Position numbers and translations under genes: made by a program
The notes under the pieces: model-generated
Databases searched by the model: none
The model's input: the letters and a program-made list of their open reading frames with translations, nothing else
Told to the model about the DNA's origin: nothing
Source: an uncultured Alphaproteobacteria bacterium
Lineage (GTDB): Bacteria > Pseudomonadota > Alphaproteobacteria > Rs-D84
Reading direction: 5' to 3'
Assembly (NCBI GenBank): GCA_963540515.1
Contig: CAUTNA010000001.1
Span: 74,699 to 138,698 of the forward strand
DNA: 64,000 nucleotides
Shown here: one piece after another, positions 4,441-37,888 of the stretch
Layout: the number at the start of each line of letters is the position of its first letter
Position numbering within the stretch: position 1 is the stretch's first letter

Positions 4441-4839
4441 ATGAAAGAAATTATATTAGAAAATCTTGAAAAAACAAAACAATGGTCAGAAGATTTTGCA
4501 AAAAAAATTAGAAAACCTCAAACAATTGCTTTATACGGAACTTTAGGAATTGGAAAATCAGAAATTGCAAGAAACATCATAAAAACCCTTAAAGGTAATG
4601 ATACAGTTGTACCAAGTCCCACTTTTACAATTGTTCAAAATTATGATGGAATTTCTCATTTCGATTTATACAGAATTAAAGACGAAAGTGAACTAATAGA
4701 AATTGGTTTATTAAATTCCATTGAAAATGATATCACCTTAATAGAATGGCCAGAAATAGCAAAACATTTATTACCTAAAAACACAATACATATATATATT
4801 AAAGAATTTAAAAATGGTAGAAAAATAAAAATTATTTAG
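4441..4839 (+). CDS. tsaE: tRNA threonylcarbamoyladenosine biosynthesis ATPase TsaE
   Basis: P-loop ALYGTLGIGKSE, SPTFTIVQNY and HFDLYRI motifs. 132 aa. Confidence 0.8.
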   Translation: MKEIILENLEKTKQWSEDFAKKIRKPQTIALYGTLGIGKSEIARNIIKTLKGNDTVVPSPTFTIVQNYDGISHFDLYRIKDESELIEIGLLNSIENDITLIEWPEIAKHLLPKNTIHIYIKEFKNGRKIKII

Positions 4840-6601
4840 ATAATAAATTCTGAATAGTCATTGATAAATCATTAGATTTATATATAGAAGAAGAACAAAC
4901 TATAAAATCAGCTCCTGCATTCCAACAAATTTTTGAATATTCTTCTGTAATATCTCCACAAACTATTATATTAAATTTAAGATCATACTTTCTTCTAGTA
5001 TTTACCAAAATTATTATTTTATTAACAATATCTTTATTAAATTTATCAATTTCTGAACCAGAGTTAGAAGACATAATAAAAATATCATCTATCATTTTCA
5101 AAAAAGGTTTGATTAATAATATTTTTGTAGAAGGTTCTATTGATATACCAACTTTTTTACCTAGTTTTTTTATTTTATTTAAAATATTATACACATTATT
5201 TATTTCAAGTGGAATAATTATACCATCAACACCTATTTTAGATAGTTGTTTTATTAAAGTATTTGGATTTATCATCATTAAATGAACATAAAAATAACCC
5301 GATATTTTTGATTTTATATATTCTATTTCTTGTATACTTCCATATATTCTGTTAACAAAAAAACCATCCATAATAGTTGTATAAAAAAAAGATAAATTTA
5401 AAGATTTAAATAAATCTAATTTTGAATTATCACTTAAATCAAAATCTTTTATATTTAAAATTATTGGATTTAAAAAATTTTTTTGTTTTTTAGAAAAAAA
5501 CTTAAATACAGAACTAAAAAGTTTATCCCTTCTATTTTTTTTATTTATATATCTTAAGAATGATTTTATTTCATTTTTAAAAACATATTCAGATAAACTT
5601 TTTATCGTAGCTTCTGTTCCAAGATTTACAGAATTAATATTAAACCAATCGTTAAATATGGTTTTTATATACTTTCTATTTGATCCTGATACAAATATCT
5701 TATTAACATTATGTTTTTTTAAACACTCTGAAATTTCATTTTCAAAAATACTTAATAATTCTCTATATGCAGATAAAATTATTTTTTTTAATTCTTCTTT
5801 TGTAAAATCAAATTTATCGCTTACAGGAAAATATCTATCATTTTCTTCTATTGATAAATTTATAATTTCTTTCTCCATTAAATAAGCATCTTCAAAATTT
5901 ATATTTAATGTATTTAAAATCTTTTCAATCACAAAATTTTTTCCAAATTTTACAGTCTTAAAAAATACAGGACCTGTTTCCTTCCAAATTGATAAATTTG
6001 TAAAATCATTTTCTAAATTAACAATTAAACAAACATCTTCTTGTTTTCTATATTTTTGAGCAATTACAAAAGAACCGTCCAATATAACTTCTAGCTCTAA
6101 TTTTGAATGATACAAATAAGAATATATTTTCTGTAAATCAGGTTTATTATATGCAATCACACTAAAAATAGAACCTAAGTTATAATCATCAATACCTATT
6201 GGAGATTTTAAATTTTTATTATTATCTGTAGTATATTTTATAGGAATAATATGAATTGGTAAATAATCAGGATTATCTTCTTCATTTTTAATTAACAAAT
6301 GATCAATTTGTTTTTTTATATCATTTGAATTTATTTTATGTAAAATATTTTTATATAAACATTTTTTTTTATAAAAAATAGTATTTTCAATATTTGATAC
6401 AACATAAGCGAACTCAAATCTTGTATTTATTTTTTTTTCAAGCTCATCTAATATTTCCTTTATTGCGTATTCAGCATTTGAATTCTCTATAGATAATATC
6501 TCTGACTGAACTATTTTAGCAGAACGAATTTTATGAGCTAATCCATAAACAATTCCCTCTCCTATACTTAAAAATAAAACCTCAGATTTAGATAATTTCA
6601 T
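4832..6601 (-). CDS. Fusion protein. N-terminus is a degenerate FtsA-like (actin-fold cell-division) domain. C-terminus is a degenerate ribulose-phosphate 3-epimerase (Rpe)-like TIM-barrel domain.
   Basis: Lies immediately downstream of ftsQ with a 4-nt ATGA overlap. The N-terminus reads VLFLSIGEGIVYGLAHKI where FtsA has LDIGTSKI, and its phosphate-2 motif is weakened (IFVSGSNRKY). The C-terminal ~215 aa carry Rpe hallmarks (IMDGFFVN, YVHLMMINP, GVDGIIIPLE, MSSNSGSE, GADFIVCSSSIY), but several metal ligands are substituted. One uninterrupted 589-aa ORF. Confidence 0.5.
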   Translation of the reverse strand: MKLSKSEVLFLSIGEGIVYGLAHKIRSAKIVQSEILSIENSNAEYAIKEILDELEKKINTRFEFAYVVSNIENTIFYKKKCLYKNILHKINSNDIKKQIDHLLIKNEEDNPDYLPIHIIPIKYTTDNNKNLKSPIGIDDYNLGSIFSVIAYNKPDLQKIYSYLYHSKLELEVILDGSFVIAQKYRKQEDVCLIVNLENDFTNLSIWKETGPVFFKTVKFGKNFVIEKILNTLNINFEDAYLMEKEIINLSIEENDRYFPVSDKFDFTKEELKKIILSAYRELLSIFENEISECLKKHNVNKIFVSGSNRKYIKTIFNDWFNINSVNLGTEATIKSLSEYVFKNEIKSFLRYINKKNRRDKLFSSVFKFFSKKQKNFLNPIILNIKDFDLSDNSKLDLFKSLNLSFFYTTIMDGFFVNRIYGSIQEIEYIKSKISGYFYVHLMMINPNTLIKQLSKIGVDGIIIPLEINNVYNILNKIKKLGKKVGISIEPSTKILLIKPFLKMIDDIFIMSSNSGSEIDKFNKDIVNKIIILVNTRRKYDLKFNIIVCGDITEEYSKICWNAGADFIVCSSSIYKSNDLSMTIQNLLSK

Positions 6602-7269
6602 TTTAGTTTAACAATTATATTTTCATTTCTTAAATCAATAAATTCTATTTTCTTAGAAAAAACATCATTCAAATTATTAATTGTCATAAAAGACCTTAAT
6701 ATTTTATATGGATTTTTTTCTGGTAATTTTATAATCAATCCATTTTTAAAATAAATATTCCATCTCCTATCTTCTATCCAACTGACATAATCGATTTTAT
6801 CAATTAAACCTTTTAATTCTGAAGTTATAGATATAATATTTGATGGTACTTTTCCTTTTATAACAAGAAATTTATTGTTAACCTTTTGATAACTAGAAAT
6901 AATTTTTCCTTCACTTGAAATTATAAAATAATTTTTTCCATCCGTCCATAAAGCAACAGGTTTATATTTTTCTATTTTTAATACAACTGAACCATTTGAT
7001 AATTTTCTAATAGATGATTTTTTTACATCAGGTATTGTAGAAATTTTCTTACTAAGTTCTTTCAAATTCAAAGAATCAATTTTTGATTTGTTATCTATAT
7101 TCAAAAGTAAAACAAATTCATTAATATTTTTATCTTCTGTATAAATTGAAATTTTTTTTACATATGGACTATTACCTAATATATATCTATTAATAATAAC
7201 TATTATAAAATAACTAATAAAAATAATTGTTAAAAATAAATTAATAAAAAGTAATATTTTTTGTTTCAT
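6598..7269 (-). CDS. ftsQ: Cell division protein FtsQ (POTRA domain)
   Basis: Has an N-terminal transmembrane segment and a POTRA-like region, and sits at the dcw-cluster position directly upstream of the ftsA-like gene. 223 aa. Confidence 0.7.
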   Translation of the reverse strand: MKQKILLFINLFLTIIFISYFIIVIINRYILGNSPYVKKISIYTEDKNINEFVLLLNIDNKSKIDSLNLKELSKKISTIPDVKKSSIRKLSNGSVVLKIEKYKPVALWTDGKNYFIISSEGKIISSYQKVNNKFLVIKGKVPSNIISITSELKGLIDKIDYVSWIEDRRWNIYFKNGLIIKLPEKNPYKILRSFMTINNLNDVFSKKIEFIDLRNENIIVKLK

Positions 7270-7279
7270 AAAAATTTAA

Positions 7280-7660
7280 TTACTTAGCTCTTAATAAATA
7301 ACCATGCTTAAACATACATTTTCTGTATGCCCCAATTGATTTAGAGCTCGAATTTGGAGGAACAGACATTAACGATCTTTGTCCTATATCTGCATACTCA
7401 TTAGATTGAAAAGTAACCCACAAACCATTCCATTTTGGCATTTGAGGGCTTTGATTAGGAGATAATAATTTTGCTATACGAGATCTTGGCATATGAGAAG
7501 GAGTGTCTACCCCCAAACAACTTTTATGATCTCTAACAAACTGTTCTGCAGTTACAGCATCATTTTCCCAATTTAATATAGTTGCATCATCTATACTTCC
7601 ACTATTTACAGATGCACAAGAAGATAATAATAAAAATAAAATTAATTTATAAAATTTCAT
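7280..7660 (-). CDS. Small Cys-containing lipoprotein of unknown function
   Basis: Signal peptide with lipobox LLLSSC. 126 aa. No recognisable catalytic motif. Confidence 0.4.
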   Translation of the reverse strand: MKFYKLILFLLLSSCASVNSGSIDDATILNWENDAVTAEQFVRDHKSCLGVDTPSHMPRSRIAKLLSPNQSPQMPKWNGLWVTFQSNEYADIGQRSLMSVPPNSSSKSIGAYRKCMFKHGYLLRAK

Positions 7661-11641: not shown

Positions 11642-12283
11642 ATGAAAATTGAATATCTAAAGCAAGATTTAAAAGAAGTTGAGAAAAATTTTGCATATAT
11701 ATTGATGAGCAAGACTATTTGTTTAGATTTTTATAGAGCTTTAAAAGAACAAAAAGTAAAACATAATCTATTTATTAATTGGGTATTTTTAAATTATCAA
11801 GATATTATTACTTTAGATCTGTGTAAAATACTAGAAGAAAAGAAAAAACATTATTCTTTAACCAATTTTATAAAAAATCTTATAAAAAATTATGATTCTT
11901 TTACAATAAAAATTAGAGAATTTAATAATAAACTATCAAATTTTAAAATTGAAGAAATCAAAAAAAATTTTCCTAATGTTGATAATTATGATCCTAAAAT
12001 TCCTGAATTTAATATACCTGTATCAGATTTTGAATATGATTTGAAACAAATAAAAAATATTCATAATAGATTAATAAAATATCGTAACAAAAAATTATGT
12101 CATAATGATATATCTAAAGAATACAAAGATGTATCACCAGAAAAAATAAAAACATTACACTCTTATATAGATAAAATAGAAAGTATTATTATCAAATATC
12201 TTCGAATATTTAACATTTATATGGATTATGATATTTTAAAAAAAGAAAATTATTATAATAATTTCAAATTTGAGCTAAAATAA
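11642..12283 (+). CDS. Hypothetical protein with an Rx5H (HEPN-like) motif, placed directly after the tRNA-Gly/tRNA-Tyr pair
   Basis: 213-aa ORF starting 20 nt after tRNA-Tyr. Contains ...NIHNRLIKYRNKKLCHND..., which fits R-x(4-6)-H. No other recognisable domain. Followed by ~440 bp of non-coding DNA. Confidence 0.4.
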   Translation: MKIEYLKQDLKEVEKNFAYILMSKTICLDFYRALKEQKVKHNLFINWVFLNYQDIITLDLCKILEEKKKHYSLTNFIKNLIKNYDSFTIKIREFNNKLSNFKIEEIKKNFPNVDNYDPKIPEFNIPVSDFEYDLKQIKNIHNRLIKYRNKKLCHNDISKEYKDVSPEKIKTLHSYIDKIESIIIKYLRIFNIYMDYDILKKENYYNNFKFELK

Positions 12284-17237: not shown

Positions 17238-18308
17238 TTAATTTAAATTTGTCATTATTTGATCTTGAATTTGAAAAGTTCCAAGTACTACCCATGCAAT
17301 TATAAAAGAAACCAGAATTATACCAATAGTATTGATTGTACTAGATATAGATTCTGCCTTTCTAATACTATTTTCAAGATAATCTTCGGCTATCTTCGAT
17401 ATATTTTCATTAAAATTATTCATATCTGAATAAATAGCAAGATCTCCTATTATTTCATCGTTTGGGAAATGAGTTTTTGAATTCTCAAGAGCAATACCTA
17501 AATTATCACCATTCGCAACATTATGCATCACGGATTGTAAAATTTTATTCAAATATTTATTAGAATTTTCAGATAATAATCTTAATGCTAAAGATAAACT
17601 ACAACCACTCGATAACATAGCAGATAAAGAAATCATCCAACTTACACCCAAATAAACCTTATATAGGTTATAAGGAGGAATTTTATCAAATATAGTTCTT
17701 ATAAAACCTGACCAATTCTCTAAACTAATCCATACAAAAAATATAACTAAAAGAATACCTATAACTAAAAAATCCCAATAATTTTTTGTAAAATTAGAAA
17801 CATCTAATAAAATAGATGCATTTCCAGTTAAATTTTCAGTTGTACCAATAGCATCAATAAGAGGTGGTATTAAATATATACCCGACATTATTATTATTCC
17901 AAAAGTTAAGATAAATAAAAATAGTGGATATGAAACAGCCGAAAAAACAGCTCTTTTTATTCTTCTAACAGAATCTATAATTTTTGAGATATTATCTAAT
18001 GAAACTGCTAATTTTGAAATATCACCACTTGATAAAATAAGATTTTCTGTATCTGAAACCCAACCTTTTGTTGCTTCAGCAAAAGAATCTCCATTTTCAA
18101 GATTTTTTTGCCAAGATTTTACACAGATAGCAAAAGGCTCTGAATTTTTAATACCACCTTTAGATTCAATTAACTCTATTCTTCTAAGAGCTTCCATAAG
18201 AGTAAAATTATTTTTTAATAATGAAGATATTTTTCTATATAAAGATAACCTTTTTTCAGTATCTAATTTAAATATAAGTTTTGCGTATAATAAATCTAAA
18301 AAAAACAT
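17238..18308 (-). CDS. Type II secretion / type IV pilus platform protein (GspF/PilC/TcpE-like, T2SSF domain)
   Basis: 356 aa. Two cytoplasmic helical domains are separated by TM helices (SYPLFLFILTFGIIIMSGIYLI; FLVIGILLVIFFVWI), with a C-terminal TM (IGIILVSFIIAWVVLGTF). This is the GspF topology. Immediately downstream of the secretion ATPase. Confidence 0.7.
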   Translation of the reverse strand: MFFLDLLYAKLIFKLDTEKRLSLYRKISSLLKNNFTLMEALRRIELIESKGGIKNSEPFAICVKSWQKNLENGDSFAEATKGWVSDTENLILSSGDISKLAVSLDNISKIIDSVRRIKRAVFSAVSYPLFLFILTFGIIIMSGIYLIPPLIDAIGTTENLTGNASILLDVSNFTKNYWDFLVIGILLVIFFVWISLENWSGFIRTIFDKIPPYNLYKVYLGVSWMISLSAMLSSGCSLSLALRLLSENSNKYLNKILQSVMHNVANGDNLGIALENSKTHFPNDEIIGDLAIYSDMNNFNENISKIAEDYLENSIRKAESISSTINTIGIILVSFIIAWVVLGTFQIQDQIMTNLN

Positions 18309-19937
18309 TTAATATATCCCCGGTTGATCTATTAAACCTACCCATCTTTCTAATTCATCAATAGAAATAATTCCTTTTAACATTAATTCAATAGCAGATT
18401 CTTTTAAAGTTCTTCCATCTAAATTTTCAAGCCAATATCTAGTTGCAGATTTTGTATCTCCAGATAAAGCAAGATTTAAAAATTCTCCATCAGTTATTAT
18501 AATTTCTCCAGCTTTTATTCTTCCGTTTGTTCCCTTATTTTTACAATTATCACAACCACAACCTTGTATATAAATCTGTTTTAAACCAATTTCTCCAAAA
18601 GCATCTTTTACCCTTTTATAAGCAGGATGTTCTGGATTATCGATTAATTTTTTCTTACACTTAGGACATAATTTTTTAAATAAACGCATAGATACTAAAC
18701 CTCGCATCATCGTTTCATCTTTTAATTTAAAAGATTCTACACCAATATCTAATAATCTAGTTAATGCAGTCATAGCAGAATTAGCGTGTAAAGTAGTCCA
18801 AACATTATGACCAGATAAAGCTCCTTTTACAGTTAATTGAGCAACTGATAAAGTTCTTATTTCTCCAACCATTAAAGTATCAGGATCGCTCCTAAGAGCA
18901 GCAGCTAATGCCTCTGTAAATTTTTCTTCTCTTTGCTCTTCATTAGAAGTATTAATAACAGGAATTTGATGTGCTCCAAATATTTTTTGTTCTGCAGGAT
19001 CTTCAACTGTTATAAGATTTATTTCATAATTTTTCTCTTTAAGTAAAAGAGACATATTTCTTACTAAAGTAGTAGATTTTCCAGAACTTGTAGGTCCCGC
19101 AACAATAACAAGACCAGTTGGATAAGAACGCAATCTCATTAAAAGTTTTTGTTCATATTCTCCAAACTCTTGTTCTGTTTTTATTCCTTCTGTTGGATTA
19201 TCATAAAGTAATCTCATAACAACATATCTACTACCAAATGCAATTGGATTGAATTGCATTCTTATACCTATAATTCCATCAGGTAAATATAAATCTTTTG
19301 TCCCTCTAAGTGGAGTTCTTCCATCTTTTTGAGCAGATTGATACTCATTCTGAGCATAATTAGAATTTGAAATATCAGACGAAGCAAACGCAGCTCTTAC
19401 AAAAGATTCTCCCCAACTTGAACTATACTCAAAAACAGATTGAATACTACCATCTATTCTAAAATAAATAGTTGTTTGATCAGATACATCTATGTGAATA
19501 TCAGATACTTTTTTTGATACAGCTTTAGATATTATATCAATAAAATCTTTCTGCATTTGATTATCAAACTCTATTTTTAGTCCACCATTTAATTTAATTT
19601 CATTTGTTTTATATATACTTGAAATCAAACTAATATCACAATAATAAGGTTCCAAATGAGTTTTGTTTTTTTTATTTAGAAGTTCTAGAAAAGCTAAGAC
19701 TCTTCCATCATATTGATGATTTCTTGATATTATAATTTCACCACCAGAAAAATAAGCTATTAAATTTTGTGAATCTTTAGATATCTCTAAATCAGCACCT
19801 GTTGAAGTCAACAACTTATTGTTATTAGAAAATAGATAATCTATTATTTCTTTAGAAGAATTTTCCATTGCTTTTGGTATAGAAAAATTCTCTTTCTTTT
19901 TTTTATATTTTAAAGAAAAAGATGTATTATTCATCAA
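18309..19937 (-). CDS. GspE/PilB-family secretion ATPase with a C-terminal tetracysteine zinc finger
   Basis: N2-domain SDIHID, Walker A VIVAGPTSSGKSTTL, Asp box TVEDPAEQ, Walker B LMVGEIRTLSVAQ, His box GHNVWTTLHANSA. Tetracysteine CPKC...CGCDNC. 542 aa. Confidence 0.9.
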   Translation of the reverse strand: MMNNTSFSLKYKKKKENFSIPKAMENSSKEIIDYLFSNNNKLLTSTGADLEISKDSQNLIAYFSGGEIIISRNHQYDGRVLAFLELLNKKNKTHLEPYYCDISLISSIYKTNEIKLNGGLKIEFDNQMQKDFIDIISKAVSKKVSDIHIDVSDQTTIYFRIDGSIQSVFEYSSSWGESFVRAAFASSDISNSNYAQNEYQSAQKDGRTPLRGTKDLYLPDGIIGIRMQFNPIAFGSRYVVMRLLYDNPTEGIKTEQEFGEYEQKLLMRLRSYPTGLVIVAGPTSSGKSTTLVRNMSLLLKEKNYEINLITVEDPAEQKIFGAHQIPVINTSNEEQREEKFTEALAAALRSDPDTLMVGEIRTLSVAQLTVKGALSGHNVWTTLHANSAMTALTRLLDIGVESFKLKDETMMRGLVSMRLFKKLCPKCKKKLIDNPEHPAYKRVKDAFGEIGLKQIYIQGCGCDNCKNKGTNGRIKAGEIIITDGEFLNLALSGDTKSATRYWLENLDGRTLKESAIELMLKGIISIDELERWVGLIDQPGIY

Positions 19938-19940
19938 AAA

Positions 19941-20600
19941 TTAATTTTTACTTATATTTAAAACTTGTGTTTCATCATTTTTTATAAAAACAATTCCTTC
20001 ATCTAAAGATATAGATTTAATTTCAAAACCATCTACAACTTTACCAACAGAAACTTTTTTTTGTCCACCTGTCCTTAAATCTTCTATTTTTGCTTGAAGC
20101 TCACTTCCAACACCAACTATATCAATTAGTTTATAAATACTAGAAATATCATCTAATCTTTTTAGAACTTTATTTTCTACTTTAGAATTTGAACTAGAAT
20201 AAGAATTTTTTTGACTCACAAACCTTTGTTTTTCTTCTTCTAAAGAAGCTTTTTCTTGAGCAAGTCTTTCTTTTTCTTGTTCTAAATCCTGTTTTTGCTT
20301 TTCTTCCATATTAACAAGATTTTCCATTTCAATATTCAACTTTTTCTTTTCAGAATTTACTCTCTCTAAATCTAATTCTAATTGAGCTTTTTCCTTTTTC
20401 AACTGAATTAAGACTTTTTCTTGTTCTAAATCTGTTATTTTTTTAAATAAAGAATCTTCTGTATTATAATTCAATACAGCTTCATCACTTGTATTATTTT
20501 CTAATAGATTTTCTTGCGTATCTTCCTCTGCAAAAGAAAAATTACAATTAAATATAAAAATACTAACAATAACAAAGTATTTTATAAAACTATTTTGCAT
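19941..20600 (-). CDS. Periplasmic coiled-coil protein with C-terminal beta domain (GspC/PilP/GspM-like accessory, putative)
   Basis: Signal peptide, then a long Glu/Lys heptad coiled coil (EEKQKQDLEQEKERLAQEKASLEEEKQRF), then a C-terminal domain KVSVGKVVDGFEIKSISLDEGIVFIKNDETQV. Overlaps the upstream ORF by 11 nt, implying an operon. Confidence 0.4.
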   Translation of the reverse strand: MQNSFIKYFVIVSIFIFNCNFSFAEEDTQENLLENNTSDEAVLNYNTEDSLFKKITDLEQEKVLIQLKKEKAQLELDLERVNSEKKKLNIEMENLVNMEEKQKQDLEQEKERLAQEKASLEEEKQRFVSQKNSYSSSNSKVENKVLKRLDDISSIYKLIDIVGVGSELQAKIEDLRTGGQKKVSVGKVVDGFEIKSISLDEGIVFIKNDETQVLNISKN

Positions 20601-21855
20601 ATATTATCACCTCATAATTCCAAATCTTAGATTCTTCTTTCCAAGATATATTTGTAAAATAAACACCTTCAAAATTTTTAAAAATTTCTATAAACTGTAT
20701 AGGAGTCAATTTAGAAGAAAAAGAGATCTCTAAAATATTTAAATTTATAATATTCTCTCCATCCTGAATTGAATCTATAGCGATATTTGTATTTAAACTT
20801 TCTATAAAACTTTTTTGTAAAATACCAACAATTTGTCTCTCTATAAACTTTATATCTCTTTTATCCTTAGAAAATATTTTTTCCACCTCTGGAATTTTAA
20901 TTCTCAATAGAATTTCTGAATCTGATTTTTCTTCTATTTGTACACCAGGAAAATGCTTATAAACAAAATCATAAAAGTCTTTAATATTACCAAAAGTTCT
21001 TTTAAAAAAAACTGATGCGTAATAATCATTACAATTAACTTCTGTCTGACTCCAACCAACAACTGACTGCATTAAAAAATTAATACTTTTATAACAAGAA
21101 TTTATATATGAAGTTAAAACAGGTAAAGATTCATAAGGTAATTTTATTGGTTCTTTTATCAATTCATCAATTTTAAAATCTTTATCTAGCTCTTGATTTT
21201 TTTCTTCCAATTGTTTTTTATATTCTTCTGCGAGAGTAGGATCTATTTTAGAAATTTGTTTTCTGTTAATTAAAGAATCTCTTATAGGTTCTTTAAAAAA
21301 GGAAAATAATCCAAATAAAAAAAATAATAAAATAAGAAAAGAAAAAATATTAGAACCTAAATTACTTATTGGTTTTAATAAAAACTTCGTATTTGTAAAA
21401 ATACTATTATTTAAATCTTTTTCTATTCCACCTTCAATTTTCCAAGATGATGGAGCAATAAAAACACCCCAATCAGGCATTTCTTTTAATTTTAAATATT
21501 CATCATAAGCATCTTCTTCAGACAAAAAAAGTTTATCATAAATAATAATATTATTTCTTACTGCTACTAACCAAATTTCTTTTTTTAATTTAAAAGCACA
21601 TAAAAAAGAATATATCTCTTTAAAACTTTTTATAAGCTCAATCGCAGCAACAGGCATATTATTTTTATGCCCAAATTTAGAGGAACCAAGCCCTATAATT
21701 GTTCTGTAATCAACATAAAAATTTAATTTTTTATCAACAGATTTTACTAATTGCTTTGCATAATTTTTTGGTAAAATACCACCAGGTAATGGTTGCCAAA
21801 ATAAACCGACTGCATATTTTTTTTTATTTATAAATATTGTTTTATTTTGCAACAA
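20590..21855 (-). CDS. Bitopic inner-membrane assembly protein: cytoplasmic domain, one TM, periplasmic domain (GspL/BfpC/PilM-N-like, putative)
   Basis: 421 aa. Cytoplasmic domain of ~165 aa, one TM (IFSFLILLFFLFGLFSFF), periplasmic domain of ~235 aa. The topology and the position next to the ATPase match GspL-type partners. No sequence-level confirmation was possible. Confidence 0.35.
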   Translation of the reverse strand: MLQNKTIFINKKKYAVGLFWQPLPGGILPKNYAKQLVKSVDKKLNFYVDYRTIIGLGSSKFGHKNNMPVAAIELIKSFKEIYSFLCAFKLKKEIWLVAVRNNIIIYDKLFLSEEDAYDEYLKLKEMPDWGVFIAPSSWKIEGGIEKDLNNSIFTNTKFLLKPISNLGSNIFSFLILLFFLFGLFSFFKEPIRDSLINRKQISKIDPTLAEEYKKQLEEKNQELDKDFKIDELIKEPIKLPYESLPVLTSYINSCYKSINFLMQSVVGWSQTEVNCNDYYASVFFKRTFGNIKDFYDFVYKHFPGVQIEEKSDSEILLRIKIPEVEKIFSKDKRDIKFIERQIVGILQKSFIESLNTNIAIDSIQDGENIINLNILEISFSSKLTPIQFIEIFKNFEGVYFTNISWKEESKIWNYEVIIYAK

Positions 21856-25120: not shown

Positions 25121-25738
25121 TTATTTAATACATTTTTTAATTCTAATTTCTGGATCATTAAAATCAACTTTCTTATTTCTTATCTCTTCTTCTGTTTTTA
25201 TAAATCTTTTCATTAAAATAATATCTGGATGTGTTATTATTTTTAAATTAAAAAAATCAAAAGTTTTTTCTAATTCACTTTCATCTTTTATAAAAATAGG
25301 TGTTATTGAATTAGCTGCTGAAAAAATTGATTTTTCTATTTTATTTTTACTTTCTTCTATTATTGATATATATGCTTTTATATGTTCATCTTCATGATTT
25401 AATATTGCATTATACATACAAGATCCTGGTATATGTCTTGAATCTATTTTAACTAAAAAATCACTATAACCAATTTTTGCATTAATAGATTTTAATATTA
25501 CACAAAAACCATTCTTTTTTTTTACTCTATTTATAACTATTTCATAATTTTCAGCAAAAGTTGCAATAACATTACCATGAAGAAAATTCATAGGTTTTAA
25601 TGGTTGTACAACCTCTTTTTTCCAAATAGGAGAAGTTAAAATAATATTTGGATTAATCTTATACTTTAAACAATCATCTGAAAAACAATTTGTTATAAAA
25701 AAAAATATATATAAAACAAAAATAAATATTTTATTCAT
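25121..25738 (-). CDS. Secreted protein with an HExxH (HEDEH) motif, putative Zn-metallopeptidase-like (DUF922-like)
   Basis: Signal peptide. NAILNHEDEHIKAY contains HExxH. Immediately downstream of virB4, with an 8-nt overlap. 205 aa. Confidence 0.4.
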   Translation of the reverse strand: MNKIFIFVLYIFFFITNCFSDDCLKYKINPNIILTSPIWKKEVVQPLKPMNFLHGNVIATFAENYEIVINRVKKKNGFCVILKSINAKIGYSDFLVKIDSRHIPGSCMYNAILNHEDEHIKAYISIIEESKNKIEKSIFSAANSITPIFIKDESELEKTFDFFNLKIITHPDIILMKRFIKTEEEIRNKKVDFNDPEIRIKKCIK

Positions 25739-28133
25739 AACTAGTTTTTTTTAAATATTCTTCTATAAAATTACTACCAAAAGATTTATATAATTCTTCA
25801 GCTAAAATAACAGAAGATCTACCAGATTCAAATAAACGTAATAAATTACCAAGCCCTCCAAGTTCCGTATTTAATATAACAGACTCATTATTAACAGGAC
25901 GAGATAATAAAACAGCTCTTTTTAAATTAGGATATGCTTTACCTTGAATAAAAGCCATTTCTAAAGGATTTAAATTCCAATATTTATAATCAGATAAATC
26001 TGCAGCAGGATTTCTAAAAAACAAAACTGTTTGTGCTTGACCACGAACAACATCTCCTATTCCTAATTTATCTAAAATATTAGCTCTTTGAAAAGATACC
26101 ATATATGCCTGTCTATTTTTTCTTCCTTCTTGTAATCCAGCTATAAAATTATCTCTAAACATCTTATTTTCAAGCATTGGGGCAGTTTCATCAATCATAA
26201 TCAAAGAAGGATTTCCTCCACTTACTGTTGTGGTATTTATTCTATGTAAAATATAAGAAACAACTGCTGGTGCTAATATTTCATCGTTTAAAACAGTTGT
26301 AAAATCAAATGTTGTAAGCCTTGAATCTAAATCTAAAGTATCAAAATCTTCATTAAATATTTTACCATATTGAAGTGGATCAACCCATTTTTTTAAAGCA
26401 CTTCTCATATTTCCTTTTAAAGAAAAACAACTTTCGTATAAATTTGATAATTTTTTATCTTTATCTTCAATATAGTCATAATTTATAGCAACACATCTTG
26501 ATATTTCGTCTAATGATTTAGGATCATTTTGTTCAGAAATTATAGATAACCATTTTCTTAAAAAAACTCTATTAATAGAAGAGTCTTTCATTTTTAAAGG
26601 ATTAAGATGTGTTTGAAAATTATTACCCTTTTCTTTATCAGACATAGTTATATATTTTCCACCAATAGATAAAGTAAAAATTTCCGCGCCTTTATTTCTA
26701 TCAAAGAAAAAAGCTTTTAATTTTTGATGTCTTAAAGACTGAGATATTAAAAAAGAAAAAAGAGTTGTTTTACCTCCTCCAGTTGGTCCAATTGTTAAGG
26801 TATGAGCAACAGCTACAGGTTTATCCGAAACATGAAATTGAAATTGATATGGAGTACCTTGTGCTGTAGGAAAAATAACAAGAGGTTTTTCTCCCCAATC
26901 ACAATTTTTTATACCCTCTGGACTATTTGACATAGGTATACTTATAACTGCTGTTTTTGATAACATTTTAAAACTACGTGGAAAAATATCAAAACCAGGT
27001 ATTAAAGAAAACCAAGATACTTTTGATGCAAATCTTTCAACTATTGGTGATACTCCAAAAGAAGCACAAATTTTTTTAAATTCTTCAACATTATTATTTA
27101 AATCTTCTAAAGAAGTACCAAAAACTAAAAATAAAGGATAATAATCTATTAAAGATTGATTTTCAGAAACATTTTCATCAATTGAAACTTCTATATCTTT
27201 TATCTGCTCCTCAGCTATATCTTCGTTTTTTTCTATCGTTGTTCTTTTTTGTTTTATTATATTATCAATATCAGAATTACTTAAAAATTTAAAAGAATTC
27301 ATTATTATCATTTCAGATTTAATTGTTGAAATAGAATTAAAAAACTCTTCATCTAAAAAATCTGGTGATACTTTAAATGAAATATTTGATGCAAATAAAT
27401 CATTATTTCCACTAGAAAATTTTATAATTCCATTTTTTAAAAAACTTATATTATCAACGGTTGTTATACTTGATAAATTTTGATCTTTTATAATAGGTTT
27501 AGGTTTTGTTACAGGAGATAATATTCTAGCAAAAAAACTAGCTATATTTTCAGAACTATCAAAAGTTAATAATTTAGGTTTATATATAGATAACATTGAT
27601 TCTATATAATTACAGTATTGATTTAATTTTTCTCTATTTTTAGAACCATAAACAGATATAACTATATAAAAATTATTAGTAAAAATTTTTAAACCTTGTG
27701 TTTGCCATTTATCATAAATTTTCTGAGAAACTATATTATCAAACTCGTATAAATCTTCATCTTTCGATGTATTTCTAATTGTAAAAAATCTTAAAATAAC
27801 GTTTGAATCATTTATCTGATTAAAAAATCTTGTACGAAGATCAAGAAACTGCTTTTTAACATCTTCTATTTGCATTCCTGTTTGTATACCAGATAATTTA
27901 TAAACCTTTATTAAAGAATTATTAGATAACATTAAAGAATTATCAGAATATAAAGTTTTAAAAGGTAAATAATCAGAAAATTTTTTATAACTAAATTTTG
28001 GAAATATATTTTTTTTCAAAAAAGATGAATAGATTATTAGTATAAAAGATAATATTAGTATCAACATAACAATAATAAATATTGTTAAAGAAAAATTATT
28101 AGTTATAAAATATTTAAAGTAATTATTAAGCAT
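25731..28133 (-). CDS. virB4: Type IV secretion system ATPase VirB4 (rvh-type)
   Basis: 800 aa. N-terminal TM, Walker A LTIGPTGGGKTTL, Walker B IMIDETAPM. Preceded by virB3. Confidence 0.9.
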   Translation of the reverse strand: MLNNYFKYFITNNFSLTIFIIVMLILILSFILIIYSSFLKKNIFPKFSYKKFSDYLPFKTLYSDNSLMLSNNSLIKVYKLSGIQTGMQIEDVKKQFLDLRTRFFNQINDSNVILRFFTIRNTSKDEDLYEFDNIVSQKIYDKWQTQGLKIFTNNFYIVISVYGSKNREKLNQYCNYIESMLSIYKPKLLTFDSSENIASFFARILSPVTKPKPIIKDQNLSSITTVDNISFLKNGIIKFSSGNNDLFASNISFKVSPDFLDEEFFNSISTIKSEMIIMNSFKFLSNSDIDNIIKQKRTTIEKNEDIAEEQIKDIEVSIDENVSENQSLIDYYPLFLVFGTSLEDLNNNVEEFKKICASFGVSPIVERFASKVSWFSLIPGFDIFPRSFKMLSKTAVISIPMSNSPEGIKNCDWGEKPLVIFPTAQGTPYQFQFHVSDKPVAVAHTLTIGPTGGGKTTLFSFLISQSLRHQKLKAFFFDRNKGAEIFTLSIGGKYITMSDKEKGNNFQTHLNPLKMKDSSINRVFLRKWLSIISEQNDPKSLDEISRCVAINYDYIEDKDKKLSNLYESCFSLKGNMRSALKKWVDPLQYGKIFNEDFDTLDLDSRLTTFDFTTVLNDEILAPAVVSYILHRINTTTVSGGNPSLIMIDETAPMLENKMFRDNFIAGLQEGRKNRQAYMVSFQRANILDKLGIGDVVRGQAQTVLFFRNPAADLSDYKYWNLNPLEMAFIQGKAYPNLKRAVLLSRPVNNESVILNTELGGLGNLLRLFESGRSSVILAEELYKSFGSNFIEEYLKKTSYE

Positions 28134-28422
28134 TTAATTTATTCGGAATCTTTAATTTTAATAAATTTAATTTAACTTTTATAATTTGAGCAAGTTGTTG
28201 TTCTTTTTTTGAAAAATATGCAATAAATATATGTACAGAACATAAAGATATTAAAAATATTAATGGATCTAAAGACTTTTTACCTTTACTAAAAGTAAGA
28301 ACTAATATAAAACAAACTATAAATATAAAAAATTGAACCATAAAATTTAAAACTGCTAAATTATATGGAACAAAAAATATTCTAGATGGATTTGCAAAAA
28401 CTTTTAAAACTTTTTGTTTCAA
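28126..28422 (-). CDS. virB3: Type IV secretion system protein VirB3
   Basis: 98-aa two-TM protein overlapping the start of virB4. Confidence 0.65.
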   Translation of the reverse strand: MKQKVLKVFANPSRIFFVPYNLAVLNFMVQFFIFIVCFILVLTFSKGKKSLDPLIFLISLCSVHIFIAYFSKKEQQLAQIIKVKLNLLKLKIPNKLNA

Positions 28423-28538
28423 AATTTAATTCTCCCAACTGTTGTAATTATAACAATTTCAACTATTATCAACAAGTTTAAAAAATTTTAAGATATAATA
28501 AAAAATAAATGTTTAAAAATATAAAATATTTAACAAAC

Positions 28539-28625
28539 TTTAATTATTAACATTTTTATTAAAATAAAGTAAAAACAATATTTTATTATGTAAATAACTT
28601 GTTTAATTTAATTATTAACATTTTT
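28539..28625. repeat. Two copies of a 19-bp exact direct repeat TTTAATTATTAACATTTTT (28539-28557 and 28607-28625) in the divergent virB3 / rpmJ promoter region
   Basis: Read directly. Spacing 68 bp, between the virB3 start (28422) and the rpmJ start (28716). Confidence 0.45.
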
Positions 28626-28715
28626 TACATAATAAATAATAACAATAAATAAATATTAAATTATTTGATTTTTATTTTTTTATATTTATACTTTAGCTTT
28701 ATTAAGAGGATTTTT

Positions 28716-28850
28716 ATGAAATTTTTAAGTTCATTAAAAGCTTGGAAGAAACGTGGAAACATTAAACAAGTACGTAGAGGTAAACAGGTTATTTTAATAG
28801 ATCCTGATAATCCTAAATTAAAAGCTAAACAAGGTTTTAAAAGAAAGTAA
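28716..28850 (+). CDS. rpmJ: 50S ribosomal protein bL36, Cys-less (non-zinc) form
   Basis: MKFLSSLKAWKKRGNIKQVRRGKQVILIDPDNPKLKAKQGFKRK follows the L36 pattern MKVxSSLK...KQG. RBS AAGAGGA lies 6 nt upstream. Start taken at the second ATG of the listed ORF. Confidence 0.65.
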   Translation: MKFLSSLKAWKKRGNIKQVRRGKQVILIDPDNPKLKAKQGFKRK

Positions 28851-28854
28851 TATA

Positions 28855-29553
28855 TTAAAATATTTCTATATCTTTTATAAAAGCTTCTTTAAGTATTTTA
28901 TTTATTTTGTTTTTATTTAATCCTGAATTTTTTAGGTATTCTATTTGTTTTTGATTCTCTTTATATAAAGAAGCTGAATGATCTGCTGATATTGGGATTG
29001 ATTTAATATACTGTACTGGTAAAAAGTCTATTTTTGAATTAATTTCTGCTATAGCAGAAAAATTTATATCAGATATACATTCTTTTAAATTCTTTTCTAT
29101 GTTTGCTACTGCAGAAATTCTTGAATTTGAATTTTTTAAATTTATTATTCTTGTGTATAAAATGATTTCTGTATTTTTATTAAGATGATTACAATTTTCT
29201 TTTATATCTAATATAGATTCATTTTTTATAATTATTTTTCCTTTAAATTTAGAATTTTTACCATTGTTATTAATATTAATATTTAAATTATTTTTTAATT
29301 TGTTTATTAATTTTAATGTTAAAAAAACTTCTTGATTATCAATATTTATATTTATATTTATATTATTATCTTTTAATATGTCTCCAATGTAAATAATATG
29401 TATAGGTAAAGTTATTTTTTTATTAATATCTATATTTGTATTTTTTATTTCTATAATATTATCTTTTATATTAGATAATAGTTTATTATCTTTAAAGATT
29501 ATTTCATAAGATAAAAATTTTGATATATTAAATTTACTAAAAATTTTTTTCAT
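28855..29553 (-). CDS. Hypothetical Asn/Ile-rich protein
   Basis: 232-aa ORF with a low-complexity NININININ stretch. No confident motif. Confidence 0.35.
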   Translation of the reverse strand: MKKIFSKFNISKFLSYEIIFKDNKLLSNIKDNIIEIKNTNIDINKKITLPIHIIYIGDILKDNNINININIDNQEVFLTLKLINKLKNNLNININNNGKNSKFKGKIIIKNESILDIKENCNHLNKNTEIILYTRIINLKNSNSRISAVANIEKNLKECISDINFSAIAEINSKIDFLPVQYIKSIPISADHSASLYKENQKQIEYLKNSGLNKNKINKILKEAFIKDIEIF

Positions 29554-29660
29554 AAATAATATTTTATATATTTTTTATAATATATGTAAGTATTAAATTT
29601 TAAACTTTAAAAATTAAAAAAAATTATTAATATTAAGTTAATTTTTTAAATGGATTTATA

Positions 29661-30740
29661 ATGGGATTTAATTGTGGTATTATTGGTCTTCCAAATGTTG
29701 GAAAATCTACTCTTTTTAATGCTTTAACAGAAAGTATAATTGCTGATGCACAAAATTATCCATTTTGTACTATTGAACCTAATACAGGTAAAGTTGTTGT
29801 TCCTGATGATTTATTTTTTAAACTTGCAGATACGGTTAAATCTAAAAAAATTGTACCAACACAACTTGAATTTGTTGATATAGCTGGTCTTGTTAAAGGA
29901 GCATCTAAAGGTGAAGGACTTGGAAATAAATTTTTATCACATATTTCAAATGTTGATGCAATAATACATGTAGTAAGATGTTTTGAAGATGATGATATTA
30001 CACATGTAAACGGTATTATAAATCCTTTACAAGATATTGATATTATTGAAACAGAATTAATTTTATCTGATCTGGAATCTTTAGAAAAGCAGATTAAAAA
30101 TATAGAAAAAAAAGCAAAAGGACAAAATAAAGAATCAAAAGATTTATTAGAAAAAGCTTTTTTTGTTAAAGAAAATTTAGAAAAAGGAATACCTTCAAGA
30201 TTTTTAAAATTAGAAAAAGATTATTTTAATTTATTAACAAATAAACCTGTTATATATGTTTGTAATGTTGAAGAAAAAAGTATTATTTGTGGTAATAAAT
30301 ATTCAGATTTAGTTATCAATAAATATAAAAATATATCATCTGTACTTATTATTTCTGCAAAAATAGAGATGGAAATATCTCAAATTATAGATAAAAAAGA
30401 AAAAAAAATGTTTTTATCAGAATTTGGTCTTATAGAGTCTGGTTTAGATAAAATAATAAAAGGTGGTTATGAAATTTTAAATTTACAAACTTTTTATACT
30501 ATTGGTCCAAAAGAATCTCACGCTTGGTCTATAACCAAAGGTTTTACAGCTCCTCAAGCTGCTGGAAAAATACATAGTGATTTTGAAAAAGGGTTTATAA
30601 GAGCAGAAATAATATCTCCAGAAGATTTTTTATATTATGGTAGTGAATTACAAGTAAAAGAAGCAGGAAAAATGAAATTAGTTGGTAAAGATTATATTAT
30701 TCAAAATGGAGATATTTGTCATTTTTTATTCAACTTGTAA
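29661..30740 (+). CDS. ychF: Ribosome-binding ATPase YchF
   Basis: P-loop IIGLPNVGKSTLFNALT, FVDIAGLVKGAS, C-terminal TGS domain. 359 aa. Confidence 0.95.
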   Translation: MGFNCGIIGLPNVGKSTLFNALTESIIADAQNYPFCTIEPNTGKVVVPDDLFFKLADTVKSKKIVPTQLEFVDIAGLVKGASKGEGLGNKFLSHISNVDAIIHVVRCFEDDDITHVNGIINPLQDIDIIETELILSDLESLEKQIKNIEKKAKGQNKESKDLLEKAFFVKENLEKGIPSRFLKLEKDYFNLLTNKPVIYVCNVEEKSIICGNKYSDLVINKYKNISSVLIISAKIEMEISQIIDKKEKKMFLSEFGLIESGLDKIIKGGYEILNLQTFYTIGPKESHAWSITKGFTAPQAAGKIHSDFEKGFIRAEIISPEDFLYYGSELQVKEAGKMKLVGKDYIIQNGDICHFLFNL

Positions 30741-35676: not shown

Positions 35677-35679
35677 TTT

Positions 35680-37446: not shown

Positions 37447-37888
37447 TTTTTAAATATTCCAATATTTTTATAAATATTATATATAAGAAGTAAATCCAAA
37501 TAATAAAAAAGATACTAGTAAAAATATTTAAGAAACTATTTGTAATAGTTAATATTATTATAGGTACTGATATAAATATAAAAAAAATTAAATGATTTCC
37601 GTTTTGTTGATTGGTTATATCTATAAAAGATTGAAAATGGTTGATAGAAAAAATTACACAGTAGTAAAATGAAAAAAATAATAAACTATCTGAGCAGTAA
37701 TCTATTATGAATAAAAAGAAAATAGAAAATAAGAAATAAAAATTTATAGGTTTAATAAAAGAAAAGTAAAATATTGGTATAAATGATAAATATCCATTAG
37801 GGTTCCAAAAAAAATTAAAATACCAGAGTATTAAAACTGATATATAAGGAAATATATTATTTAAAAAAGTTTTTAAATAAGTTTTCAT
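37439..37888 (-). CDS. mreD: Rod shape-determining protein MreD
   Basis: Small polytopic membrane protein between mreC and mrdA. 149 aa. Confidence 0.55.
   Translation of the reverse strand: MKTYLKTFLNNIFPYISVLILWYFNFFWNPNGYLSFIPIFYFSFIKPINFYFLFSIFFLFIIDYCSDSLLFFSFYYCVIFSINHFQSFIDITNQQNGNHLIFFIFISVPIIILTITNSFLNIFTSIFFIIWIYFLYIIFIKILEYLKND

Follow-up and report, generated by a model that had tools for sequence, protein, structure and literature searches.

Directly behind ftsQ, in the position that ftsA holds in the canonical order ftsQ-ftsA-ftsZ, this locus carries a single gene whose product resembles FtsA in its first half and ribulose-phosphate 3-epimerase (Rpe) in its second. We wondered whether this reading frame is a genuine fusion, whether either half could still act as an enzyme, and what would keep two such domains in one polypeptide.

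The fusion gene, its neighbours and its family

The window, by which we mean the whole 64,000-nucleotide stretch of DNA analysed, encodes the fusion at 4832-6601 of the minus strand. As an earlier note made from the letters had claimed, this is one open reading frame of 589 amino acids in which an FtsA-like half is joined to an Rpe-like half, and it is free of stops and frameshifts. The reported ATGA overlap with the upstream gene is visible in the DNA: the junction reads ...aaactaaaATGAaatta..., so that the TGA stop of ftsQ overlaps the ATG of the fusion. The features of the region are as follows.

7280-7660, minus strand: conserved gene for a 126-aa lipoprotein, upstream of ftsQ (present throughout the clade; dN/dS 0.05)
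6598-7269, minus strand: ftsQ, upstream of the fusion and translationally coupled to it (open reading frame list; Pfam FtsQ_DivIB_C, E=4e-11; ATGA overlap)
4832-6601, minus strand: the whole ftsA::rpe fusion, 589 aa plus stop (ATG start; uninterrupted orthologues)
5570-6601, minus strand: FtsA-like actin-fold core, residues 1-344 (TIGR01174, PDB profile, Foldseek, AF2)
6554-6568, minus strand: degenerate phosphate-1 motif SIGEG, residues 12-16; family consensus DIGT (motif alignment)
6146-6382, minus strand: 1C or SHS2-type inserted subdomain, residues ~74-152 (Pfam SHS2_FTSA and AF2 model)
5999-6019, minus strand: degenerate phosphate-2 motif NLENDFT, residues 195-201; family D-x-G-x-x-x-T, canonical DIGGGT
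5675-5692, minus strand: VSG--SNR, degenerate remnant of the adenosine motif; the family has GGG, and two residues are deleted here
5468-5569, minus strand: inter-domain linker, residues 345-378 (AF2, hydrophobic moment, family pattern, DNA homopolymers)
5495-5527, minus strand: amphipathic stretch DKLFSSVFKFF, residues 359-369, followed by the polybasic tail SKKQKN
4835-5467, minus strand: Rpe-like (beta/alpha)8 barrel, residues 379-589 (PF00834, 2FLI match, Foldseek)
5363-5383, minus strand: YTTIMDG, remnant of H-x-D-x-M-D-G, with His replaced by Tyr407 and Asp by Thr409 (2FLI alignment)
5039-5074, minus strand: MSSNSGSEIDKF, remnant of the M-x-V-x-P-G-x-G-G-Q-x-F phosphate-binding loop
4949-4963, minus strand: VCGDI, remnant of V-D-G-G-I, with the second catalytic/metal Asp replaced by Cys548
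4441-4839, plus strand: tsaE, convergent with the fusion (PF02367, E=7e-32; 8-nt overlap with the 3' end of the fusion)

It had also been noted that ftsZ is not adjacent and that tsaE and uvrB lie convergent instead, and this holds: tsaE sits where ftsZ would be expected, and the UvrB gene, also convergent, lies downstream of the fusion. The FtsZ tubulin signature GGG[TS]G[TSA]G was absent from all six frames of the whole 64-kb window and of about 20 related loci, and no ftsZ lies within 10 kb of the fusion in four assemblies of the lineage and 11 species genomes. A DNA pattern for FtsZ written in AT-rich codons matched at least 120 AT-rich loci among metagenome contigs, and none of those listed shares genes with the window or the clade loci.

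Orthologous fusions sought in relatives were found in number. Four metagenome assemblies of this lineage, independent of one another, carry an uninterrupted fusion after ftsQ, as do 11 GTDB species genomes, and the two genes overlap in each genome examined. Clustered at 50% identity, the fusion proteins form about 30 groups; they come from uncultured gut Alphaproteobacteria with 24-55% GC, the distant members including genomes of 49-55% GC. Habitat and genome size suggest that these loci may belong to the GTDB order Rs-D84 / Ca. Enterousia. Across the clade the gene order is fixed as the 126-aa lipoprotein gene, ftsQ and ftsA::rpe, without ftsZ. The window protein shares 97%, 76% and 20-34% identity with other members of the family, the 76% match (P0002) being found in two further assemblies; in two separate metagenomes (L012 and L013) the linker differs nowhere from that of the window. 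A homology search with a 22-sequence alignment returned nothing beyond three proteins already found, and searches of the literature yielded no relevant report of an FtsA-Rpe fusion. Two candidates for unfused forms or a split ancestral state (P0022 and P0011) turned out to reflect a scaffold gap and a frameshift.

The earlier note had entertained a deletion, a missed stop or a frameshift as the source of the fusion. No stop or frameshift separates the halves, and the junction is identical across independent assemblies; a deletion in this genome is likewise unsupported, since relatives share the fusion at only 20-34% identity, with motifs mostly intact. Judged by these comparisons, the fusion is ancient, in-frame and conserved clade-wide, neither an artefact nor the product of a recent deletion.

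Two recognisable folds with altered active sites

By sequence profile and predicted structure, the N-terminal half is an FtsA homologue of the actin fold, with subdomains 1A, 1C, 2A and 2B, and the gene is the clade-wide ftsA orthologue. The resemblance is loose, as had been observed: the NCBIfam ftsA model TIGR01174 matches residues 26-341 with E=1e-15 but with 57.5 bits, below its cut-off of 175.85, under which the higher-GC fusion members also fall (57-88 bits). Pfam SHS2_FTSA matches residues 89-137 (E=2e-4; 22 bits, below its cut-off of 25.4), and in the AF2 model, where pLDDT is ~90 or higher over residues 1-344, the 1C subdomain comprises strands 74-89, 113-125 and 138-152 and a helix at 92-109. 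Searched against the PDB, the fusion-family profile finds FtsA at E=7e-30 and PilM at 6.5e-12, and Foldseek gives target-normalised TM scores of 0.73-0.77 to FtsA (1e4g, 7q6f) versus 0.5-0.66 to PilM.

This half has in common with FtsA of T. maritima (1E4G/4A2A), E. coli (7Q6D) and Vibrio (7Q6F) the ASKHA/actin fold with its 1C (SHS2) subdomain, the coupled position directly after ftsQ and, as a candidate counterpart of the membrane helix, an amphipathic, basic segment after the core. It differs in that this putative membrane-targeting helix lies inside the chain, not at the C-terminus, with a 211-residue Rpe barrel appended; in its 57 bits against the equivalog's 176; in having no ftsZ after it in the window or about 20 related loci; and, in the window lineage, in the loss of three nucleotide motifs. 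The window protein fails all three ATP-binding motifs, which read SIGEG, NLENDFT and G--SN. The proposed change of DIGT to SIGEG was found at residues 12-16, whereas IFVSGSNRKY, previously taken for phosphate-2, comprises residues 302-311 and aligns with the FtsA adenosine motif (LTGGGA); phosphate-2 is NLENDFT, at 195-201. FtsA binds the C-terminal peptide of FtsZ through its subdomain 2B. The position aligned to E. coli R300, a residue implicated in FtsZ binding, is variable, a point against the scaffold reading given below, and the one aligned to E303 is Glu, in an alignment whose ~15% identity is too low to be decisive.

The C-terminal half matches Pfam Ribul_P_3_epim (PF00834) over residues 394-574 (E=2e-25, 89.7 bits against a gathering threshold of 21.1) and the Rpe of S. 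pyogenes (2FLI) both in sequence (E=6e-23) and in fold (Foldseek TM 0.89, rmsd 2.1 Å). It falls below the cut-offs of the NCBIfam models NF004076 (126.9 bits; cut-off 165) and TIGR01163 (100.9 bits; cut-off 212.6). With Rpe of S. pyogenes, Synechocystis (1TQJ) and human (3OVP) it shares the (beta/alpha)8 barrel and the elements MDG, HLM, M510 and GAD. The known enzymes are stand-alone proteins of ~220 aa, whereas the window barrel is fused to FtsA and has three of its four metal ligands, including both catalytic Asp residues, replaced. In the 2FLI alignment H34 corresponds to Y407, D36 to T409 and D176 to C548, leaving only H67 (H440) of the metal tetrad, which agrees with the loss of metal ligands read earlier from the change of HFDVMD to YTTIMD. 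The phosphate loops are altered as well, NPGFGGQ having become NSGSEID and GS having become SS. Of the columns that at least 85% of the 29 active-type family members have in common, 84 in all, the window protein retains 50; the 34 that it lacks include H407Y, D409T, D548C, G550D, P514S, G518I, Q519D, G570S, S383N and G197E.

The description of two pseudo-enzymes in one polypeptide is therefore supported: the folds are confidently those of FtsA and Rpe and, by alignment and model, ligand-binding and catalytic residues are lost from both halves while the folds are predicted to be intact. Higher-GC fusions (P0003; MCL2629093.1, MGI5845729.1) have the same architecture, linker pattern and neighbourhood at 565-623 aa. 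They retain H-x-D, H, D, PGxxGQ and GS, most of them also DIGT and GGG, and unlike the window protein they pass the NF004076 cut-off (173-177 bits versus 165). The window protein is the derivative in which both halves are degenerate. Across the family the Rpe metal/catalytic tetrad is intact in 29 of 33 members and the FtsA nucleotide motifs in most. The Rpe residues are lost only in the most AT-rich branch (the window protein, P0001 and P0002, plus P0018), and all three FtsA motifs only in the window lineage. In a neighbour-joining tree P0018 joins this lineage with support of 98/100 overall and 40/100 on the FtsA half alone. Because that latter support is weak and compositional attraction is possible behind the grouping, we limit the claim to one or two losses of Rpe catalysis.

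A predicted membrane scaffold and the competing accounts

AF2 models the whole protein with a mean pLDDT of 89.7, both domains being confident, and a pTM of 0.60, which points to two domains joined flexibly. The linker begins as a helix (residues 345-369), and pLDDT drops below 50 at residues 367-375. The hydrophobic moment of this helix is 0.66-0.80, with 0.66 for DKLFSSVFKFF, a range that does not discriminate by itself since ordinary barrel surface helices score alike; the ranking by hydrophobic moment was accordingly downgraded from strong evidence for a membrane helix. The pattern of a hydrophobic stretch and then a polybasic, K/R-rich one recurs in most members of the fusion family, with the exception of a subclade (P0021, P0024, P0026, P0029) whose linker is short, basic and without a helix.

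Selection was computed between the window and L014, at a dS of ~0.5. The FtsA half has a dN/dS of 0.33; that of the linker is 0.30 and that of the Rpe half 0.19, compared with 0.31 for ftsQ and 0.05-0.11 for housekeeping neighbours. The FtsA half is thus a fast-changing segment, with constraint relaxed relative to the neighbouring genes. On these estimates both halves are under purifying selection despite the lost enzyme residues.

Our preferred reading, to which we give a probability of roughly 0.55, is that the protein is a non-enzymatic, membrane-tethered FtsA scaffold whose dead barrel is retained for a structural role. Ordinary FtsA carries an amphipathic helix and a basic stretch at its C-terminus. 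The fusion would be a nucleotide-independent divisome scaffold of the FtsA type, translated together with FtsQ, and its linker, with the amphipathic helix and the polybasic stretch, would hold it at the inner face of the membrane. The dead barrel would be kept for a non-catalytic role, most likely self-association and alternatively the binding of a partner. Rpe enzymes that stand alone form dimers or hexamers, so that self-association of the barrel would render the FtsA moiety multivalent. Where relatives have kept the active site, a functional pentose-phosphate enzyme would come to lie at the membrane or the divisome. That the fusion protein binds the membrane, oligomerises and binds FtsZ is our inference; the earlier idea of a division-scaffold innovation is compatible with purifying selection on two dead halves.

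It is unlikely that the halves work independently and that the fusion, without mechanistic significance, is an accident of genome compaction fixed early, the barrel persisting in this lineage only because its truncation would destabilise or mis-express FtsA, while its pentose-phosphate role was lost. Genomes of such bacteria are small: one chromosome among the related genomes measures 716 kb, and reduced genomes have been described for them (PMC12306168). The pTM of 0.60 would likewise fit the lack of a fixed interface between the domains, and the active-site loop drifts fast. Against this, dN/dS is lower for the barrel than for the linker or the FtsA half, and the barrel is more similar to P0002 than the FtsA core is (82% versus 74% identity), which implies more constraint than is expected of a passive appendage. 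It is also untruncated in all AT-rich members seen, which span two deep branches (the window lineage and P0018), despite abundant out-of-frame stops nearby.

We regard it as distinctly improbable that the Rpe-like half still binds a ligand or performs catalysis by a changed chemistry, in which Tyr407, His440 and Cys548 would replace the His/Asp/His/Asp site and make the barrel a sensor or an enzyme for another substrate. These three residues are common to the window protein, P0001 and P0002, and Tyr, His and Cys can all ligate metal. Retention of the pocket residues D412, G413, H440, M442, M510 and D565, and of the family-specific C559-W560, makes residual ligand binding possible. Yet both catalytic Asp residues are gone, the phosphate loops (GG-Q and G-S) are degenerate, and the scores lie well under every NCBIfam Rpe cut-off. 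Among close relatives the loop MSSNSGSEIDKF changes faster than any other part of the barrel (45% identity to P0002, compared with 82% for the whole barrel), and model confidence is low there, with pLDDT below 50 at residues 516-518. P0018, moreover, is substituted differently at the tetrad positions (N, D, N and Y) and has a loop deletion.

Decay of a pseudogene in a degenerating, endosymbiont-like genome is very improbable. All the enzyme motifs are lost, the gene has a GC content of 20% with many homopolymer runs, and its dN/dS exceeds that of its neighbours. However, no stop or frameshift occurs in 1770 nt of a sequence in which out-of-frame stops abound. Orthologues at a dS of ~0.5 keep the frame open, with dN/dS of 0.19-0.33, well under 1, and AF2 predicts a confident fold.

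No better placed is the possibility that the N-terminal half is another actin-fold protein, such as the PilM of nearby type II/IV secretion-like genes. FtsA models score far under the equivalog cut-off family-wide, there are weak PilM matches, and T2SSE/F genes lie at 17-20 kb; FtsA is nevertheless the best match by sequence profile and fold, with a wide margin, and the overlap with ftsQ is present in all genomes examined.

Least credible of all is an assembly or sequencing artefact joining separate ftsA and rpe genes through a missed stop or an A/T-homopolymer indel. In its favour, the linker DNA has many A6-A8 and T6-T7 runs, and two database contigs carry 'split' genes. Yet the frame crosses the junction in at least four independent assemblies of this lineage and in all higher-GC relatives; one split (L139) is caused by a 10-N scaffold gap whose flanks are duplicated, and the other (L140) is a frameshift within the barrel, away from the junction. 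Nor does a separate Rpe have an ATG to start from at the junction or close to it, since no Met occurs between residue 243 (in 'LMEKE') and M411, inside the barrel.

Implications for division and annotation

The scaffold reading has conceptual precedents. Caulobacter KidO and GdhZ, B. subtilis UgtP and E. coli OpgH are metabolic enzymes, or homologues of such enzymes, and regulate division without a covalent link, KidO being a catalytically inactive oxidoreductase homologue. As in the fusion, a metabolic-enzyme fold is physically tied to the division machinery; these are, however, separate polypeptides that act on FtsZ, whereas here the fold is part of the FtsA polypeptide itself, and any regulatory action that it has would be hypothetical. 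TsaB (YeaZ) kept the ASKHA fold as a structural partner after losing its ATP-binding motifs, but it belongs to another subfamily and pathway, and its likeness to the FtsA half is an analogy only.

A wider proposal, which we offer tentatively and consider doubtful as it stands, is that an order-level clade of gut Alphaproteobacteria with reduced genomes has rebuilt its divisome anchor. FtsA would have been hard-wired to a pentose-phosphate enzyme, with ftsZ displaced from the cluster or possibly absent, and a role of the barrel in division, for example in oligomerising or clustering FtsA at the membrane, would have outlasted its catalysis. If this is true, a metabolic enzyme was co-opted and then 'fossilised' as a module of a cytoskeletal scaffold, together with an ATP-independent FtsA.

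Public records name the fusion "ribulose-phosphate 3-epimerase" or hypothetical. Given the former annotation, metabolic reconstructions may credit the AT-rich members with a pentose-phosphate step that is dead in them, and reconstructions of uncultured gut bacteria may score ftsA as missing. FtsA is among the best-studied divisome proteins, and its function is taken to depend centrally on ATP binding, on polymerisation and on the membrane helix at its C-terminus. A clade that carries an enzyme barrel beyond the membrane helix, with one branch devoid of the nucleotide-binding motifs, would be a natural experiment on which features of FtsA are required, and the fusions with an active and with a dead barrel would form a ready-made pair for probing a non-catalytic role of the barrel.

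The fused gene and its locus

The earlier note described one ORF combining an FtsA-like and a Rpe-like half, and we find it in the window (GC content about 25%) within a divergent locus:

4832..6601, minus strand: ftsA::rpe fusion ORF, encoding 589 aa
7280-11365 (whole cluster), one strand: lolD, lolCE, the 444-aa lipoprotein and the 107-aa protein
same cluster, other strand: the 126-aa lipoprotein gene, followed by ftsQ and ftsA::rpe

The overlap with ftsQ that the note had read is present: the fusion ATG overlaps the TGA stop of the upstream gene (…aaactaaaATGAaatta…), which encodes FtsQ (FtsQ_DivIB_C, E=4e-11). The 3' end overlaps the convergent tsaE by 8 nt, with uvrB beyond it. As the note also held, ftsZ is not adjacent: an FtsZ signature is absent from the 64-kb window and from every related fusion locus scanned, and a metagenome scan with a DNA pattern for the clade's ftsZ gave none among the matches listed. 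In each member examined, ftsA::rpe is the sole FtsA-like gene at the ftsQ locus.

Residues 26-341 match the NCBIfam ftsA model TIGR01174 (E=1e-15, 57.5 bits; cut-off 175.85), and residues 373-586 match the Rpe models NF004076 (126.9 bits; cut-off 165) and TIGR01163 (100.9 bits; cut-off 212.6). By these sequence scores each half is recognised significantly by its NCBIfam models, though below their cut-offs; the Rpe half clears Pfam PF00834 (89.7 bits). An AlphaFold2 model built from a 22-sequence family alignment has a mean pLDDT of 89.7, with each domain at about 90 or above and a pTM of only 0.60. Together with a long helix at residues 345-369 and disorder at 367-375, these values fit a pair of rigid domains joined by a flexible tether.

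Foldseek searches of the PDB with the model returned FtsA structures first (1E4G, 3WT0, 7Q6F/I and 4A2A; E about 1e-21, target-normalised TM 0.73-0.77), followed by Rpe from S. pyogenes (2FLI; TM 0.89, rmsd 2.1 Å) and then 1TQJ, 7B1W and 3OVP. That the N-terminal half is instead a PilM-like protein has less support: PilM scores below FtsA (TM 0.5-0.66), and a profile of the N-terminal halves finds FtsA chains at E=7e-30, against 6.5e-12 for PilM and 1.5e-11 for MreB. These same scores contradict the possibility, raised in the note, that this half is no actin-fold FtsA homologue. The stand-alone proteins nearest to the Rpe-half family profile are not headed by alphaproteobacterial enzymes: the nearest named ones belong to Lactobacillales (Aerococcus, Trichococcus), while in the PDB S. 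pyogenes 2FLI matches best. The fused barrel may be of foreign origin, or the likeness may be an effect of composition.

The divergent cluster has the same genes in related loci L001-L018 and L141, across genomes of 24% to 49% GC. Its 126-aa lipoprotein gene, adjoining ftsQ upstream, falls in no Pfam family, has a dN/dS (0.05) below that of any other gene measured, and may encode an unrecognised envelope or division component. Elsewhere in the window, an elongasome block on the minus strand (34531-38703) encodes RodA, PBP2, a 149-aa ORF without Pfam match at the MreD position, and MreC; mreB is not adjacent, and rplT follows on the other strand. Genes for secretion/pilus-type ATPase and platform proteins (T2SSE, T2SSF) and a VirB4/TrbE-type ATPase lie at 17238-19937 and 25731-28133 of this very reduced genome, flanked by ORFs without family match (19941-21855, 25121-25738). 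The lowest GC (17%) is at 28000-30000, where about 720 bp (28134-28854) hold no ORF of at least 120 aa; the 232-aa ORF beside this stretch matches only the C-terminal part of SufB/D and may be a gene remnant. Adjoining a tRNA-Gly/tRNA-Tyr pair, the ORF at 11642-12283 scores 26.2 bits on HEPN AbiU2, just short of the 26.8-bit cut-off, and is missing at the matching site in L012 and L013, contigs carrying a 97%-identical fusion, where only an 89-aa gene is called.

Conservation of the fusion

A word-indexed search returned three full-length homologues, of 97%, 76% and 30% identity. The first lies on 146- and 157-kb contigs from two different metagenomes and the second on contigs from two further assemblies, with the same neighbour genes on all of them. 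The linker codons show zero differences between the window and L012/L013. A missed stop or frameshift, which the note had considered, is contradicted by these independent full-length homologues and identical linkers, and assembly artefact is among the less supported readings.

Orthologous fusions in relatives, which the note proposed looking for, were found in number. When each GTDB species was scanned through a single genome, 11 genomes proved to carry the full-length fusion; all come from uncultured Alphaproteobacteria of the gut or rumen, with 36-42% GC, and they include a complete 716-kb chromosome. Gene order is the same in all 11, with genes for the 444-aa lipoprotein and the 107-aa protein on one strand and those for the 126-aa lipoprotein, FtsQ and the fusion on the other, and in 10 convergent tsaE and uvrB follow (the downstream gene differs in L002). 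When 1.84 billion representative sequences were searched exhaustively with HMMER, about 30 clusters (50% identity) with the fusion architecture ranked ahead of ordinary 220-aa Rpe proteins; distant fusions, in genomes of 49-55% GC, and one on an independent 24% GC contig again directly follow ftsQ. The ftsA::rpe gene is a genuine, conserved and ancient fusion, not an artefact. In habitat and genome size the fusion carriers resemble the order Rs-D84/Ca. Enterousia, whose reduced genomes are described in PMC12306168, and they may belong to it.

Two seemingly split ftsA/rpe versions among database gene calls were rejected as artefacts: L139 (1671-3611) is interrupted by a 10-N scaffold gap whose flanks are duplicated, and L140 (1365-3126), from a single-run assembly, has a frameshift within the barrel.

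Degeneracy and selection in the window lineage

Aligned to 2FLI, the window protein has Tyr407 for the metal-ligand His34, Thr409 for the catalytic/metal Asp36 and Cys548 for the catalytic/metal Asp176, while His67 is kept as His440. The phosphate loop NPGFGGQ has become NSGSEID and the G-S phosphate contact S-S. At least 85% of active-type members (those keeping the Rpe metal and catalytic residues) agree at 84 columns; the window protein retains 50 of these and lacks 34, which by this comparison take in each catalytic or ligand-binding position. No part of the barrel varies more than the former phosphate loop (45% identical to the 76%-identical protein P0002, whereas the barrel as a whole is 82% identical), and the loop is modelled with low confidence.

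In the FtsA half, phosphate-1 DIGT is SIGEG (residues 12-16), as the note had seen. The IFVSGSNRKY segment it assigned to phosphate-2 is the adenosine motif, where GGG has become G--SN with a two-residue deletion (residues 304-309); the phosphate-2 position (canonical DIGGGT; D-x-G-x-x-x-T in the family) reads NLENDFT (195-201). With all three motifs degenerate, the doubt over ATP binding is strengthened.

The motif table of 33 family sequences places these losses. H-x-D, H, D, PGxxGQ and G-S are retained by 29 members, typical ones clearing the NF004076 cut-off (173-177 bits vs 165). Loss of the Rpe residues is confined to the window lineage (window, P0001, P0002) and P0018, the four proteins richest in K/N/I/Y/F, whose genomes have 24-26% GC. 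The substitutions are not the same in the two lineages: Y/T/H/C in that of the window, but N/D/N/Y together with a loop deletion in P0018. A neighbour-joining tree groups them at 98/100 overall and 40/100 on the FtsA half, so inactivation occurred once or twice, and compositional attraction may lie behind the grouping. The P0023/P0025/P0027 subclade, too, has lost phosphate-1, and P0007 and P0010 have eroded phosphate-1 and adenosine motifs; all three nucleotide motifs are lost only in the window lineage.

Nei-Gojobori dN/dS between the window and its 76%-identical orthologue (dS about 0.5, unsaturated) is 0.33 for the FtsA half, 0.30 for the linker and 0.19 for the Rpe half, which indicates purifying selection on both halves, stronger on the dead barrel than on the FtsA core. 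A decaying pseudogene has correspondingly less support. Values are 0.31 for ftsQ and 0.05-0.11 for lolD, lolCE, tsaE, uvrB and the lipoproteins; taken as a group, the division genes are evolving more rapidly than the housekeeping genes beside them. The motifs and the selection together show the window-lineage fusion to be a double pseudo-enzyme under purifying selection, which agrees with the note's view of both halves.

Linker, proposed role and annotation

In most members the two folds are joined by a helix with a hydrophobic/aromatic face and then a K/R-rich tail (DKLFSSVFKFF-SKKQK in the window, KYINKIKKLF-TTHTKKKK in P0003, KFIAQITKLFHRHKKIKKKK in P0004), similar to the C-terminal membrane-targeting helix of ordinary FtsA; in one subclade the linker is short, basic and without a helix. 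The hydrophobic moment of 0.66-0.80 is comparable to that of the E. coli FtsA helix; as ordinary barrel helices reach similar values, it is suggestive of a membrane helix at most. The linker DNA (5468-5569) is dense in homopolymers (A8, T7, A6, A7, T6). Relatives of 36-42% GC also have A6-A8 runs there, with only 1-4 runs of at least 7 in the whole gene. The runs could be an effect of coding poly-Lys; transcriptional or translational slippage at them could also give an FtsA-only product ending just past the amphipathic helix.

We propose that the fusion protein would serve as an FtsA-type scaffold that needs no nucleotide, with its internal amphipathic/polybasic linker as the membrane tether. 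The dead barrel would be kept for a structural role, most plausibly self-association, as Rpe enzymes are dimers or hexamers. The main rival is that the barrel is an appendage without functional meaning that is hard to remove; the strong constraint on it counts against this. A ligand sensor with altered chemistry has less support, and the pseudogene, assembly-artefact and PilM-like readings have in that order less still.

In public records at NCBI and IMG, fusion proteins from across the family (P0003, P0005, P0023, P0029 and others) carry the name "ribulose-phosphate 3-epimerase" or "hypothetical protein" and are assigned to MAGs of Alphaproteobacteria or "Rickettsiales". Because the FtsA half scores 57-88 bits across the family, always under the TIGR01174 cut-off, these genomes are probably annotated automatically as lacking ftsA. 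The variant goes unrecognised by annotation, and a literature search found no paper mentioning an FtsA-Rpe fusion. For specialists in cell division and in pseudo-enzymes alike, the variant is best described as an FtsA with a fused Rpe barrel, fossilised in the window lineage.
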